A stretch of DNA of 64,000 nucleotides from the sequence record MZ358387; one strand, written 5' to 3'. The notes under the pieces are model-generated. The model ran no database searches. It worked only from the letters and a program-made list of their open reading frames with translations, and was not told the origin of the DNA. A program made the translations under genes and the position numbers. Position 1 is the stretch's first letter. Every line of letters begins with the position of its first letter. Positions 1 to 4,575 of the stretch are shown here, piece by piece. Source of the DNA: Shigella virus Moo19.

Positions 1-215
1 TGATGGTGACGATGTGATTCTTGCTGTACCCCGCCCAGTGGCTAGTGGCGGGACCGATTAACTAAAGGGCTTTCCACCTCCTTACCCGTTTAGCTAAAGG
101 CTAATAACTACCACAGTCAGGGTTCCTCGGCTCCTTTGACTTAAGACTGCAATCTTAAGTTTAACGGTACATAAGTACCTAGAGGGATGAACTGACCCGA
201 TACTGAAGTCGGTCA

Positions 216-252
216 GGGGCATAGTCGAGAGGCTATGCCCCATTTCTTTTTA
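216..252 (+). terminator. Stem-loop (9-bp stem ggggcatag/ctatgcccc, 8-nt loop) followed by T-rich tract, just upstream of first ORF
   Basis: Inverted repeat read directly; atttcttttta follows. Confidence 0.4.
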
Positions 253-263
253 TAGGAGCTATC

Positions 264-674
264 ATGGACATCTACGGTCTTGATATAGAAACACAGACAC
301 AAAAGAAAGAAGCTGACCCATACGTGATAGGTTCAGCTCAGTTCTTCGCCACCATCTTTGGTAACAAACACGCTATCCTTCTCCCAGATTGTGAAGAATC
401 CCACGAACTAGTAGGTTGCTGGCTGTTAGACAACATCCCACTAACCACTCGTATCATGAAGCAAGGTGAGACTATCATCTACAATCTGGAAGACTATGGA
501 ATACAAGAGGATGGTCAGTACACATGGATGCCACCTACTTACTTTATTCCACTGCCTGACTGGGAACTCATAGCTTCTCACGACGTATTCAAAAGGCAGA
601 TTGCTATCTACTTCCGTCCACGCCCTACCTGGAGAAAGAATCCATATGCAAGTCCAATTAATCTGTCGCAGTGA
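264..674 (+). CDS. Hypothetical early protein, member A of tandem small-ORF paralog family (SHELVGCWLL motif)
   Basis: ORF track; aggag RBS at 255-259; shares H-E-(V/L/F)-x-G-x-L-L motif with downstream ORFs. Confidence 0.4.
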   Translation: MDIYGLDIETQTQKKEADPYVIGSAQFFATIFGNKHAILLPDCEESHELVGCWLLDNIPLTTRIMKQGETIIYNLEDYGIQEDGQYTWMPPTYFIPLPDWELIASHDVFKRQIAIYFRPRPTWRKNPYASPINLSQ

Positions 675-1011
675 TAAAGATTCTGATGTAGTAAACGCAT
701 TAGAAATTCCATTCGACTTCTTTAGTCATGAGCTACACCTGAGCCAAGTAATCCTGGTTCCCTCCCTTGAGCATTATCATGAAGTTCAGGGGCAACTGTT
801 AATCAATGGTGTGACTGCTAAAGTAATCTGCATTCTTCCACCATCCCAATATCAGCCACCAGTTGGAAGTGTTCCTTATGCACTAGTCACTGATGACTAC
901 GTTGCTAAGTGTGACCCACTGCCTAATGTTGGTAAGTACAACGATACTTTAAATCTTACTTATTATTTCGAGAAGAAAGATGCAGCTACAACTAACGAGG
1001 TTCATGAGTAA
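646..1011 (+). CDS. Hypothetical early protein, paralog family member B (YHEVQGQLLINGVTAKV)
   Basis: ORF track 601-1011; first in-frame ATG beyond most of the overlap with upstream ORF is 646. Confidence 0.4.
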   Translation: MQVQLICRSDKDSDVVNALEIPFDFFSHELHLSQVILVPSLEHYHEVQGQLLINGVTAKVICILPPSQYQPPVGSVPYALVTDDYVAKCDPLPNVGKYNDTLNLTYYFEKKDAATTNEVHE

Positions 1012-1288
1012 CCCTCATAACTTATCTCTAGTGCACCCGGACGCAGAACCTTATCTATTAAGTGACGTTGGTTATGTACTCAGCGGTGAGTCCAAAGTCG
1101 TTATGCTTACCAGTGAGTCAGCTAACCTATTCCTCGTTGAGTGCATGATGCGGGGTGTCAATGCTGATATCACCCTCAAGGAACCAGGTGAGAAAGTATA
1201 TGGTGGCCTGCTCTGCTACTTAATACATAGTCCGCATGAGTATCCTGACTACGATAATGATGGTTATGTCTGGATAAGGAGGCCGTAA
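1004..1288 (+). CDS. Hypothetical early protein, paralog family member C (ends WIRRP)
   Basis: ORF track 980-1288; ATG 1004 overlaps upstream stop (ATGAGTAA). Confidence 0.45.
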   Translation: MSNPHNLSLVHPDAEPYLLSDVGYVLSGESKVVMLTSESANLFLVECMMRGVNADITLKEPGEKVYGGLLCYLIHSPHEYPDYDNDGYVWIRRP

Positions 1289-1563
1289 TGTTTGCCTATT
1301 TTGTACGCTCTACTTACGATGCCTACCACGGTATGCTATCCATCAAGTTAGAAGTAGGGCAACACTGGCCTACTTTTGAACCAGGAACAGCAGCTATTTG
1401 GGTTCATCCTGACATAGACTTTCATGAAGTACAGGGTGACCTGTTACTTCGGGGTAAGACAGCTAAGCTGATGGAATGTCCTCCGAACTATCGAATAAAA
1501 GAGAGTGGCATATTCATCCTGGCTCATAGTTACAGTAATGCACTGGAGTTACTGCGTCCATGA
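1288..1563 (+). CDS. Hypothetical early protein, paralog family member D (FHEVQGDLLLRGKTAKL, ends LLRP)
   Basis: ORF track; start overlaps upstream stop (TAATG). Confidence 0.5.
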   Translation: MFAYFVRSTYDAYHGMLSIKLEVGQHWPTFEPGTAAIWVHPDIDFHEVQGDLLLRGKTAKLMECPPNYRIKESGIFILAHSYSNALELLRP

Positions 1564-1922
1564 ATCTCTTCCTAATACCCCCTATGTCCTGTAATCCGCT
1601 TAAGCTGGTGGGCGAACAACCTACCTGGGATAGACTTGGCGTAACTAAAGAGACTGTCCTGTATGAACCAAGTGAAGAAGCACACGAGTTCATTGGTCAC
1701 TGTCTCATGATAAGTAGTGAAATACAGTTCAAGTCTCTTGCTGAACCAGTAGAAGTAAGGGAACAGGATAAGGTTTATGTAATAGGGCATCACTATCCTG
1801 ATGTATGCACCACCTTACAGGGCAGGCTTATCAGGCTTACTGATGAGAGTACCTGCATCCAGTGTACCTGCTATCACCCCTGCCCTTCTTCAAAGAAGGT
1901 TATCTACCCACTGGATATCTAA
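1560..1922 (+). CDS. Hypothetical early protein, paralog family member E (AHEFIGHCLM), Cys-rich C-terminus
   Basis: ORF track; ATGA overlap with upstream gene. Confidence 0.45.
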   Translation: MNLFLIPPMSCNPLKLVGEQPTWDRLGVTKETVLYEPSEEAHEFIGHCLMISSEIQFKSLAEPVEVREQDKVYVIGHHYPDVCTTLQGRLIRLTDESTCIQCTCYHPCPSSKKVIYPLDI

Positions 1923-2210
1923 ATGAATCTTACTAAGATACACGTTACTCCTACTAAGATGGTTAACTGTCCTATAACTAAAAAGTTATTTACTGTATCC
2001 AGTGACATACTCATTCTTGTACCAGACCTGGATAGCTTTCATGAAGTGAAAGGACAGGAGATGTTACTCAATAAGAAATGGGAAGTTCATCTACTTGAAC
2101 CAGGAAAGGAACTTAGGTGGCTGGGTATGTACAGTCCCTGGCATCTTAATACGGATAGCTACCGTCTTACCTTTACTGACCATATTGCTGTATATACTCC
2201 ACGCCCCTAG
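1923..2210 (+). CDS. Hypothetical early protein, paralog family member F (FHEVKGQEMLL, ends YTPRP)
   Basis: ORF track; tttcatgaagt nucleotide motif shared with members B and D. Confidence 0.5.
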   Translation: MNLTKIHVTPTKMVNCPITKKLFTVSSDILILVPDLDSFHEVKGQEMLLNKKWEVHLLEPGKELRWLGMYSPWHLNTDSYRLTFTDHIAVYTPRP

Positions 2211-2245
2211 CTCCTCAAACATAACTGCTTATAAAGAGTAACCTC

Positions 2246-2434
2246 ATGGATAATATTGCATTAAAAAACTACCGTACTGCTATTCAAGCCATAGAGCTTA
2301 TTAAAGCAGAGGTAGAAGTAACCTTTGGGTTACACGTAGGAACAGACCCAGAACCAGAAATAATGGTGGAAGCTTATAACATTGTTCTGGCTATACGTGC
2401 AGGTTATAACAGGCTATGCGAAGCATCTAAATAG
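2246..2434 (+). CDS. Hypothetical small protein (62 aa)
   Basis: ORF track only. Confidence 0.3.
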   Translation: MDNIALKNYRTAIQAIELIKAEVEVTFGLHVGTDPEPEIMVEAYNIVLAIRAGYNRLCEASK

Positions 2435-2480
2435 GAGGTATATAATTACCCTCTATCTAATATTTTTGCATGTCAAAATG

Positions 2481-2593
2481 GTGATAGCTACTTGTGATAG
2501 CTGTGGTGTGGCAGGGGCTACACCCTTACACGTTAACTACCCCCCCGGTATGTTGACTCATGGGTGTACTACCCTACCCCACCTTACACGTTA
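2481..2593. repeat. Intergenic direct repeats: gtgatagct x2 (2481, 2494) and ccttacacgtta x2 (2524, 2582), plus repeated ctaccc runs
   Basis: Read directly from sequence. Confidence 0.6.
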
Positions 2594-2595
2594 CA

Positions 2596-2608
2596 CATGC
2601 TCCGCATG
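2596..2608 (+). promoter_or_regulatory. Tri-loop hairpin catgc-TCC-gcatg (bottom strand GC-GGA-GC); candidate N4-type vRNAP early promoter hairpin
   Basis: Perfect 5-bp stem, 3-nt loop; same core as hairpins at 3584 and 7442; upstream of ORF 2652. Confidence 0.35.
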
Positions 2609-2651
2609 GTATGGACATGTCGTCCTTATCATTAACTATTGGAGCTATACA

Positions 2652-2972
2652 ATGACTACTACTGCTAACGTACGTATGACTGCTGGAACTTTACTGGGTA
2701 CTGTAAATGAAGCAGCTACTACTATTGCTGATACCTTTGGTACTGCAACTAAAGCTGTTGGTATGCTGAACTCATATGTCACTACTATGAGTGAGAAACA
2801 ACGTATTCGTACTAAATTGGAAATGCATACATTTACCAATAAATTAGCTGAAGAAACAGCTATGCAAGATACTATCCGTAAGAAAGCTATCGTAGAATTC
2901 TGCAAAGATGAAAAGAATGCTGAACTCTATAAAGCATCTTACGATGATGTAATGGCACTGTTATCTAAATAG
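2652..2972 (+). CDS. Hypothetical protein (106 aa)
   Basis: ORF track frame 2382-2972; ATG 2652 has ggag RBS 8 nt upstream; upstream part of track ORF is repeat-rich intergenic DNA. Confidence 0.4.
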   Translation: MTTTANVRMTAGTLLGTVNEAATTIADTFGTATKAVGMLNSYVTTMSEKQRIRTKLEMHTFTNKLAEETAMQDTIRKKAIVEFCKDEKNAELYKASYDDVMALLSK

Positions 2973-2981
2973 TAAAATAAC

Positions 2982-3010
2982 GGAAGACTCCTTGGAGTCT
3001 TCCTGTTTTA
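2982..3010 (+). terminator. Rho-independent terminator (9-bp stem ggaagactc/gagtcttcc, loop cttg, then tgtttta)
   Basis: Read directly. Confidence 0.6.
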
Positions 3011-3013
3011 AAG

Positions 3014-3032
3014 ATTAGATAGTCAATCTAAT
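3014..3032. promoter_or_regulatory. Palindrome attagat-agtca-atctaat containing 14-mer ttagatagtcaatc (second copy at 3529-3542)
   Basis: 7-bp inverted repeat read directly; lies just after a terminator and upstream of ORF 3063. Confidence 0.4.
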
Positions 3033-3062
3033 TTGAATAAATAGTTAAAAGAGAATCCTACT

Positions 3063-3209
3063 ATGAGCAAACTAAAAAACGCATTTATCCTGATTGTCAG
3101 TATCCTTGCACTTGTTACTTTGGTTTCCGTTCACATTGGAAAACCTCTGGTAAACACTGACTATGGTAATGGTCAAAAAGTAAAATCCATCCTGTTAGCG
3201 GATAAGTAA
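3063..3209 (+). CDS. Small putative membrane protein (48 aa, MSKLKNAFILIVSILALVTLVSV...)
   Basis: Hand-translated; hydrophobic N-terminal segment; below the 60-aa cutoff of the ORF track. Confidence 0.3.
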   Translation: MSKLKNAFILIVSILALVTLVSVHIGKPLVNTDYGNGQKVKSILLADK

Positions 3210-3276
3210 AAACCGCATCTAGAAACTGGGCTGTTCCACAGCTTACGGATACATTTCAACCAATTAGGAGGCATCC

Positions 3277-3492
3277 ATGAACGTAGAAAATATCCGTATA
3301 ATTGAGAATTGCTTTGGTGATAAACCAGTAGACCTCAGCAACGCAAGAAGGTCTACAGATGAAGAATACAGAGAGTTTTTATCCTTACTCGATGAATATC
3401 ATATGCAAGGGCATGTTGAATTACATGCCCATCTGCATAACTCAGGCTACTTCATGGATAAACTGGAAGCTGAGACAGGCTGTCCATTCTAA
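3277..3492 (+). CDS. Hypothetical protein (71 aa)
   Basis: ORF track; strong RBS aggagg upstream. Confidence 0.45.
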   Translation: MNVENIRIIENCFGDKPVDLSNARRSTDEEYREFLSLLDEYHMQGHVELHAHLHNSGYFMDKLEAETGCPF

Positions 3493-3499
3493 GTAAAGC

Positions 3500-3526
3500 A
3501 TTCCCTCTTAGGAGGGAATTAGCCAT
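3500..3526 (+). terminator. Terminator-like hairpin (attccctc-ttag-gagggaat)
   Basis: 8-bp inverted repeat read directly; weak T tract. Confidence 0.4.
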
Positions 3527-3528
3527 CT

Positions 3529-3547
3529 TTAGATAGTCAATCAAAAG
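3529..3547. promoter_or_regulatory. Second copy of 14-mer ttagatagtcaatc in an imperfect palindrome
   Basis: Identical 14-mer to 3015-3028. Confidence 0.4.
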
Positions 3548-3583
3548 TAGATTGTGATTCTACTTTAGTTCAACTTCAAAACC

Positions 3584-3600
3584 AAGACGCTCCGCGTCTT
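3584..3600 (+). promoter_or_regulatory. Tri-loop hairpin aagacgc-TCC-gcgtctt (7-bp stem); candidate vRNAP early promoter hairpin
   Basis: Perfect inverted repeat; GC-TCC-GC core shared with 2596 and 7442. Confidence 0.35.
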
Positions 3601-3705
3601 AAGGATGTATGAGTGCATCCAATCCTGTATGAAATCTTAGTCCTTTGTTTGGGTATGTTCACCGACGAGCGTACCCATAAATCACATTTATCTGGAGAGT
3701 ATAAA

Positions 3706-4089
3706 ATGTCTATTAAAACTTTTGGTCAAACTTTCGGTTCTGCTGTTGCTAACAAACCTGCTGCAACTGAACGTCCTAAAGCTAAATTCTGGCTGAACGT
3801 TGGCTATACAGCTAACGAAGGCACAGAAGAAGCTAAGTTCATCTCACTGCCTACTGGTATTCCACTGGATACTCAGGAGCATGTAAGCACTAAGTCCAGC
3901 AATGCTGACTTCCGTGCTATGCGTTGTGCTCAGAACGACCTGCTTGACCAGCTTCTGGCATTTGCAGAAGGTCTGGAACCAGGTGAAGAAGGTGTCATTC
4001 AACTTCAGGTTCAACTTCGTCGAGTCAAAGAAGAAGAAGCTGACATCCCAGCAGACGAGAATAAATATGCTCGTAAGCTGACTTTCTAA
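3706..4089 (+). CDS. Hypothetical early protein (127 aa)
   Basis: ORF track frame 3613-4089; ATG 3706 with ggagag RBS; followed by strong terminator. Confidence 0.5.
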
Positions 4090-4098
4090 TCACTAACT

Positions 4099-4127
4099 GG
4101 ACTCCCTTCGGGGAGTCCTTTTATTTT
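4099..4127 (+). terminator. Rho-independent terminator (ggactccc-ttcg-gggagtcc + T tract)
   Basis: Read directly. Confidence 0.7.
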
Positions 4128-4232
4128 AACTCAGCGATAAACTAAGTTTAACTTTTAGGAGCTTTTCGACGAAGAGTCACTAAAACTTAAACGTAAACAC
4201 AAGCAGATAACTTAGAGTAAGGAGTAATCAAG

Positions 4233-4418
4233 ATGCGTGTACTATGTAACCGTTATAATCCGACTAGGTTAATTAACATAATGGCTATGTATGGTAGCAA
4301 GATGGCTTATGATGCTCGTTGGCAGGTATCTGTAGAAGATAGAGATGGTCAGCATTATGACCACTACTTCACAGCTAAGCCAACTCGTAAACAAATCCGC
4401 AAACTTCACAAAGGATAA
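4233..4418 (+). CDS. Hypothetical protein (61 aa)
   Basis: ORF track; RBS taaggag upstream. Confidence 0.4.
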   Translation: MRVLCNRYNPTRLINIMAMYGSKMAYDARWQVSVEDRDGQHYDHYFTAKPTRKQIRKLHKG

Positions 4419-4422
4419 TGCT

Positions 4423-4575
4423 ATGAAGCTACTGGCAGAGATTCTATGTATTTTATTAATGATACTGCTGGTAGCTGCATTTCCGTGGCTATTAGCCGTA
4501 GGCGTAATTATTGGCATGTTCGCAGCCGGAGTGAATGATGCTCGTGGCAGAGATGAACCAGGTGGAGACGTATAA
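4423..4575 (+). CDS. Small membrane protein (50 aa, MKLLAEILCILLMILLVAAFPWLLAVGVIIGMF...)
   Basis: ORF track frame 4345-4575; ATG 4423 with aagga RBS; hydrophobic. Confidence 0.4.
   Translation: MKLLAEILCILLMILLVAAFPWLLAVGVIIGMFAAGVNDARGRDEPGGDV

Follow-up and report, generated by a model that had tools for sequence, protein, structure and literature searches.

An array of small paralogous genes near the predicted right end of the N4-like Shigella virus Moo19

We analysed a stretch of 64,000 nucleotides (nt) of Shigella virus Moo19 (sequence record MZ358387), called the window here, which begins with an array of six small open reading frames (ORFs), o1 to o6, on the plus strand. A preliminary description of this DNA, made from its letters alone, had listed six consecutive, partly overlapping ORFs, and the same six were recovered here as diverged paralogues by profiles, hidden Markov models (HMMs) and fold. 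The first, o1 (264–674; 136 amino acids (aa)), is the orthologue of N4 gp71 and G7C gp71 (phrog_9160) and contains the core motif ILLPDCEESHELVGCWLLDN. It is followed by o2 (646–1011; 121 aa), of the G7C gp71.1 type (phrog_11661); by o3 (980–1288; 102 aa), identified through HMM and fold comparison as a diverged member without H-E-x-x-G; and by o4 (1288–1563; 91 aa), assigned by clustering and hhalign to the type of PhAPEC7_81, UE-M3_02 and KP8. The array closes with o5 (1560–1922; 120 aa), of the G7C gp71.2 type (phrog_12099) with an additional cysteine-rich C-terminal tail, and o6 (1923–2210; 95 aa; 100% identical to Moo19 gp6), of the PhAPEC5_75 type (phrog_16338). Clustering gave the same identities and placed o3 in a type shared with phage Jgk1. 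For o2, the ATG at 646 is a likelier start than the TTG at 601, its homologues beginning MKFIM or MLVQLVCRSDK. Neighbouring frames overlap by 29 nt (o1/o2) and 32 nt (o2/o3) or meet at TAATG (o3/o4), ATGA (o4/o5) and TAAATG (o5/o6); because all six overlap or abut, they would form one translationally coupled operon behind the leader and terminator described below. With isoelectric points (pI) of 4.8–7.9 and no hydrophobic segments, the array proteins are predicted to be soluble, cytoplasmic proteins of 90–136 aa.

Pairwise similarity among the six is low: BLASTP gave 30 bits for o2–o6, 28 for o2–o4 and 24.6 for o4–o6, with o1, o5 and o3 at 21–22 bits. The preliminary description had assigned to all of them a motif H-E-(V/L/F)-x-G-x-L-L followed by G-x-T-A-K. 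Its first part stands in five of the six ORFs as H-E-x-x-G but is absent from o3, which has SANLFLVECMM aligned in the same columns, and G-x-T-A-K is confined to o2 and o4. The statement that several proteins end in R-P is correct for o3, o4 and o6; in o1, RPRP occurs internally. The recurring nucleotide motif was confirmed as well: TCATGAAGTNMARGG occurs in three exact copies in the 64 kb, at 777, 1422 and 2039, where 0.01 copies are expected and 0 of 100 shuffles reached three. Between o2 and o4, 73% identity is kept over 45 nt.

Profile comparison with orthologues from 16 related phages resolved these relationships. Using hhalign, we obtained values of 95.7% for o2–o6, 91.9% for o5–o4, 91.3% for o6 with the upstream gene gp70 and 84.7% for o2–o4, with weaker links for o1–o6 (40%) and o5–o3 (18.6%); five control families (the homologue of the left-end gene gp1, two sets of antisense ORFs, the neighbouring ORF o7 and one other) stayed at or below 2.8%. 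In a MAFFT alignment of 39 members, a core was in register across all subfamilies, consisting of a hydrophobic strand, the pattern P/T-D/S-x-x-x-(H/A)-(E/D)-h-x-G-x-h-h-h-x-N/G and a second strand ending in P-G-E. The glycine is the sole near-invariant residue of this core, none other reaching 90% conservation, and whole subfamilies (gp71.2, type G and o3) replace the histidine and the glutamate. Leave-one-family-out HMMs were then scored against 1,083 decoys (303 real ORFs of the window and 780 shuffles). The alignment and HMM building that the preliminary description had proposed thus detected the families mutually above decoys, each family ranking at or near the top with best-member E values from 5e-5 to 3e-11 (2.3e-7 for the o1 family and 1.5e-7 for gp70). 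The weakest was o3, with 19.0 and 15.7 bits against 15.1 for the best decoy and 7.5 for the next. The same scan found no other family member in the window. Together, these comparisons identify the six ORFs, as judged from their sequences, as old and strongly diverged paralogues of one protein family, with gp70 as a seventh member of the superfamily.

Structure models were made for o6 and o3. The AlphaFold2 model of o6, computed with 52 homologues, had a mean predicted local distance difference test score (pLDDT) of 90.8 and a predicted template modelling score (pTM) of 0.80; it shows three strands, a long helix (residues 36–48) bearing S-F-H-E-V-K-G-Q-E-M-L-L, and five further strands. A Foldseek search of predicted viral structures (BFVD) with this model returned almost exclusively small uncharacterised proteins of N4-like phages. 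The matches included proteins of PhAPEC5 and PhAPEC7, a 104-aa protein of EC1-UPM (template modelling (TM) score 0.73 at 19% identity), a 121-aa protein of OLB145, three KP8 proteins, proteins of the Achromobacter phages JWAlpha and JWDelta and the Axy series, and four proteins of Pseudomonas phage Zuri, as well as BFVD's own model of Moo19 o3. TM scores were 0.5–0.88 to gp71.1-type, apparent gp71-type, type G, o4-type and o3 proteins, the subfamilies being assigned by length only. The AlphaFold2 model of o3 (pLDDT 68.9) has its elements in the same order as o6 and retrieved the same set of proteins, with o6 at TM 0.68–0.72, a result that is partly circular as its alignment came from the family. 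The models therefore point to a common compact alpha/beta fold for the superfamily, retained in phages of E. coli, Klebsiella, Achromobacter and Pseudomonas.

We next consider how widely this family occurs. A HMMER pass over 1.84 billion cluster representatives yielded 32 clusters at E ≤ 1e-3, all of 65–133 aa and none fused to another domain; they fall in PHROGs 11661, 9160, 16338 and 12099, whose function is unannotated (‘hypothetical’). A word-indexed superfamily search found 356 proteins in a set of 5.8 billion sequences, and among the 120 listed many lie on contigs of ~70 kb and the remainder on short fragments. The matches listed from the search with the superfamily alignment comprised 119 gp71.2-type proteins and one o6/o4 chimera, with none for o1–o4; o5 has at least 119 homologues among the matches listed, many of them on ~70-kb phage contigs. 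The word-indexed search with o1 alone gave four homologues, and a scan of viral contigs with o1 peptide patterns, which were overly specific, gave none. For o3, a search of 50,697 phage records yielded a homologue in phage Jgk1 only. One o6-type protein (P0049) is labelled ‘Enterococcus faecium’ in NCBI and lies on a 2.76-Mb contig; assembly contamination or a mislabelled record probably accounts for the label. The family had gone unrecognised in the preliminary description, and Pfam, NCBIfam, PDB sequence and PDB fold searches likewise gave no match above threshold. On this evidence the superfamily appears to be restricted to N4-like phages (Schitoviridae).

The position of the array in the genome differs from what its coordinates in the record suggest. 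In megablast searches, the only matches to positions 1–4500 of the window were G7C-like (Gamaleyavirus) N4-like phages, which match at 80–86% identity from about position 2509, corresponding to G7C base 1; in a separate alignment, N4 base 5 falls on position 2514. In G7C, bases 1–1160 are a terminal repeat identical to 71758–72917. The array itself aligns patchily to the relatives (~74% identity over 10–17% of its length), and the aligned parts match their right ends, for example G7C 70540–70730 and PD38 70384–71776. Its counterpart in G7C is 70705–71698, which holds gp71, gp71.1 and gp71.2 and stops 60 nt short of the right terminal repeat. Because position 2509 of the window corresponds to G7C base 1, and given the G7C terminal repeat, the window is permuted and the array lies, by homology, at the right end. 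Moo19 is a G7C-like Gamaleyavirus whose record is permuted: the array forms the final unique segment ahead of the right terminal repeat, and homology to G7C and N4 puts the predicted physical left end at about position 2509.

The early promoters agree with this placement. The virion RNA polymerase (vRNAP) promoters of N4 are hairpins (restated in PMC9163698), and we scanned the coding strand of the first 7 kb for stems of 5–7 bp with a pyrimidine-rich 3-nt loop. Plus-strand hairpins fitting N4-type vRNAP early promoters, with TCC loops, were found only at 2596–2608, 3230–3242 and 3584–3600, all downstream of the array. The first is CATGC-TCC-GCATG, and its homologues are GTTGC-TCC-GCAAC in G7C and GTTGC-TTC-GCAAC in N4, so that the stem is fully compensated relative to both. 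Positions 2509–2608 therefore probably hold the left end, or start of the terminal repeat, together with the first vRNAP hairpin promoter, and the early region would truly begin there. N4-type genomes enter the cell left end first. Early genes of the N4 type occupy the left end and follow a hairpin promoter; the array lies upstream of the hairpins, across the genome ends. The preliminary description had called it an early, first-injected region at the left end; this placement is not supported, and it stems from the arbitrary start of the permuted record.

The array is preceded by a structured leader. The window opens with the 3′ end of a gp70 homologue (1–17, plus strand), recognised by alignment with the gp70 3′ ends of relatives and ending in MVTM with the stop TGA at 15–17. 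Between gp70 and o1, positions 18–263 of the plus strand hold a conserved intergenic leader, identified by alignment, fold energy and terminator scan as a small-RNA candidate. It keeps ~78% nucleotide identity to relatives, more than the diverging genes on either side, and is alignable across Moo19, the G7C-like phages, N4 and KP8 and partly in JWAlpha. Of 54 predicted base pairs in its hairpins, 20 show compensatory changes, and its minimum free energy of −85.7 kcal/mol (z −3.5) was reached by 0 of 200 shuffles. An invariant box, TAATAAC...CAG, considered as a possible general promoter motif, is essentially unique in the window. The leader ends in a strong intrinsic terminator (stem 216–241, T-tract 242–251) about 12 nt before the Shine–Dalgarno sequence of o1, and the plus-strand scan found no further terminator until 2982. 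It had no Rfam match and the tRNA scan was negative. We infer that it is either a small RNA or an attenuating leader.

Because the leader ends in a terminator, expression of the array probably needs read-through or anti-termination, and it would not be driven by the injected virion polymerase. An analogy comes from phage LUZ7, whose right-end cluster is covered by mid-infection transcripts and in which time-dependent read-through of terminators is widespread (PMC9163698). By this analogy, the Moo19 array is probably expressed in the middle phase.

To place the array in its family context, we compared the right ends of 16 relatives, among them N4, G7C, PhAPEC5, PhAPEC7, Jgk1, Bas96 and Klebsiella phage KP8. 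All 16 have the same layout: minus-strand gp69, plus-strand gp70, an intergenic region of ~200–250 nt with a predicted terminator, the array, and the terminal repeat or left end. The plus-strand position between gp69 (small terminase-like) and the right terminal repeat is shared by these 16 Enquatrovirinae relatives and by Achromobacter phage JWAlpha, in which a gp70-like gene and a terminator are followed by four small ORFs, including two HMM matches (1.8e-7 and 6.4e-7). Within this layout, the copy-number comparison suggested in the preliminary description revealed highly variable gene content. Arrays of relatives consist of gp71 and up to six more small plus-strand ORFs, the genes after gp70 numbering one in N4, three in G7C, six in Moo19 and seven in PhAPEC7. 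G7C-like arrays share gp70-o1-o2-o5, after which o6, types F and G, and o4 appear in varying selection and order; the N4 array is gp70 and gp71 only, and KP8 has a different set. The o3 gene is inserted after o2 in Jgk1 and Moo19, and the order o3-o4 before o5 occurs in Moo19 only.

A short sequence marks the right boundary of these arrays. In all relatives, the last array gene, whatever its type, is fused in frame to the ~25-nt sequence CCTCCTATTTAACTGCTTATAAG, giving ...PSYLTAYK and a stop (right-end sequences L001 2163–2199, L005 3475–3511, L010 3090–3126 and L013 2831–2867). The corresponding conserved sequence in Moo19, recognised by comparison with relatives, is CTCCTCAAACATAACTGCTTATAAAG at 2211–2236 on the plus strand, directly after o6 and out of frame. 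Internal copies of gp71.2 have 3′ ends that resemble it, and the boundary resembles a junction at which cassettes are exchanged by recombination. Traces of exchange are found elsewhere: in HK2, Bas96 and ST4 (L007, L011 and L015) type F is reduced to deletion scars in which its start is joined to its end at GGTACAG microhomology, and the metagenomic protein P0167 (122 aa) joins an o6-type N-terminal half to a near-complete o4-type protein at a shared E-P-G-T. The P0167 chimera is direct evidence of recombination between paralogues. Array diversity thus stems from old duplication and from gain, loss and reordering of cassettes at a conserved boundary.

Three observations concern single members or neighbours of the arrays. 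Type F, which occurs outside the Moo19 window (L003 2931–3245, L002 2602–2919 and L016 4054–4386), encodes proteins of 104–110 aa with the motif HELNH(F); profile comparison found no relation to the superfamily, Pfam and NCBIfam gave no match, and it may be a minimal metallopeptidase-like protein. The tail of o5 reads C-I-Q-C-T-C-Y-H-P-C (1851–1880; residues ~98–107), recurs in a few metagenomic homologues (P0076 and partly P0183) and may form a small metal-binding knuckle. Between the boundary sequence and the terminal repeat lies o7 (2246–2434, plus strand; 62 aa), a small ORF unrelated to the family: profile comparison found no link, and its only homologues are in the Stutzerimonas siphophage STP9 (52% identity) and Klebsiella phage Snook (38%), a distribution that suggests horizontal acquisition.

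Selection on the array was estimated from pairwise ratios of nonsynonymous to synonymous substitution rates (dN/dS; Nei–Gojobori method, NG86). Medians were 0.19–0.34 for all array families, with gp70 at 0.25 and the left-end gp1 homologue at 0.21, for comparisons in which dS was 0.4–1.7 and near saturation for some families; the highest pairwise gene-wide value among array families was 0.70. Every orthologue group is under purifying selection. The preliminary description had proposed diversifying selection, which these values do not support at the gene level, where the array resembles the flanking gp70 and gp1. Because dN/dS is 0.19–0.34, the array ORFs are real, constrained genes.

Comparison with known systems delimits what is particular to Moo19. 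Its closest counterparts are gp70 and gp71 of N4 and gp70, gp71, gp71.1 and gp71.2 of G7C, which include the direct orthologues of o1, o2 and o5 in the same position after gp69, on the same strand, with the same arrangement of leader and terminator and the same fold family. The Moo19 array differs from them in being larger (six genes, versus one and three), in having the o3 type and in its unique order of o3-o4 before o5. The LUZ7 right-end cluster of 29 small ORFans (gp87–gp115; L017 4699–10346, LUZ7 68698–74345) is similar in consisting of tandem tiny ORFs, transcribed in mid-infection, that start after a gp69-like gene and run to the right end on the same strand, but its ORFs are of 40–75 aa and have no detectable sequence relation to the superfamily. 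We therefore rejected homology between the two, none being detectable; the position is conserved and the content is not. In the hyperplastic accessory-gene regions of lytic phages, such as the variable regions of T4-type phages with their shuffled cassettes, blocks of small, non-essential-looking genes likewise vary in content from one close relative to the next, with exchange at short conserved junctions. The Moo19 array differs from these in that most of its cassettes are paralogues of one fold and in that its junction is a boundary sequence in the coding region and not a promoter/stem-loop cassette. Lytic phages are already known to carry small accessory genes in variable arrays, and the one described here is built from an uncharacterised fold family. 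PHROGs splits the families, and as far as we found they have not been described as one superfamily in the literature; our searches found no study of these genes.

What might these proteins do? Several specific roles were discarded. Since only the glycine is near-invariant and whole subfamilies replace the histidine and glutamate, H-E-x-x-G-x-L-L is probably structural; a catalytic His-Glu site was rejected on this ground, as was an HExxH zinc metallopeptidase, the motif being H-E-x-x-G with His and Glu replaced in gp71.2, type G and o3. An acidic DNA mimic resembling Ocr or ArdA does not fit the pI of 4.8–7.9, the mixed alpha/beta fold or the PDB sequence and fold searches, which gave no match. 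A virion protein was also rejected, the six proteins being absent from the list obtained by mass spectrometry of Moo19 virions (PMC11654681). The reading that we favour, with confidence evenly divided between it and its negation, is that the array proteins act as non-enzymatic binders of host proteins, that is, as host-specific accessory factors encoded at the right end of an N4-like phage. Their repertoire would adapt infection to particular host strains, for instance through the neutralisation of defence or physiology factors that are specific to a strain. Recombination, at short stretches of shared sequence and at the conserved right boundary, accounts for the differences among phages in cassettes and their order. 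The host-takeover or anti-defence role suggested in the preliminary description is a reasonable conjecture. A more far-reaching version, in which the new superfamily constitutes modular, recombination-shuffled, host-specific inhibitors, for example of strain-variable defence systems, encoded at the last-entering end and gated by a leader and terminator that time or dose their expression, is possible but should be held only tentatively. Several findings weigh against the host-binder proposal and the expression scheme that goes with it. The proteins show no similarity to known anti-defence or host-takeover proteins in Pfam, NCBIfam, PDB sequence or PDB fold searches, and the predictions name no partner or target. 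Gene-wide positive selection, common in arms-race proteins, was not detected. A sigma-70 scan of the plus strand from 1 to 2600 found no promoter, the upstream part of gp70 lying outside the window, and the LUZ7 cluster behind the timing analogy is without detectable homology to the array. Membership of o3 in the family, furthermore, depends on weak scores and on a model from the family alignment.

The main rival to host binding appears to be a role at the genome end, in replication or in packaging, such as protecting or organising the right terminus and terminal repeat or helping the terminase genes gp68 and gp69, with no host target. We consider it unlikely, although in every relative no more than 300 nt separate the array from the terminal repeat and the terminase genes are its neighbours, the gp70-o1-o2-o5 core is present in every G7C-like array examined, with gp70 and gp71 reaching N4 and KP8, and the LUZ7 authors took the middle-phase timing of their right-end cluster to suggest a part in replication (PMC9163698). 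A copy number that ranges from one (N4) to seven (PhAPEC7) in shuffled order would be unusual for essential replication or packaging functions, and the proteins have no evident nucleic-acid-binding fold or strongly basic surface, their pI being mostly about 4.7–6. The variability that counts against a genome-end role is what would be expected if the genes were dispensable passengers, duplicated ‘moron’-like filler that linkage retains although the phage gains little or nothing from it; the insertion of the unrelated o7 in the region and the lack of an assigned function also fit. Purifying selection on each orthologue group at dS 0.5–1.4, intact frames, a fold kept across phages of four host genera and preserved translational coupling nevertheless make passengers distinctly improbable. 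The reading first suggested, of genes for early host takeover that lie in the left end injected first and diversify under selection, would agree with the numbering of the array genes as gp1–gp6 in the source record and with their nature as small ORFans, like many early genes. Homology to the G7C and N4 right ends, the hairpins confined to positions downstream, the terminator before o1 and the low dN/dS leave this explanation very little room. As for a chance resemblance among unrelated or non-coding ORFs, pairwise identities of 15–30% and the missing motif of o3 are all that recommends it, and the concordance of profile, leave-one-out, structure and selection evidence, with controls at background, refutes it for practical purposes.

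N4-like phages turn up frequently in gut and environmental samples, and phage-therapy collections make use of them; all of their right-end genes carry the annotation ‘hypothetical’. The comparisons made here bring gp70, gp71 and up to seven neighbours into one fold family without a solved relative. As the number and order of these genes differ among phages that are otherwise ~80% identical, they offer a small test set for effects on host range or anti-defence, and the boundary sequence and the structured leader together provide a natural site for cassette engineering.

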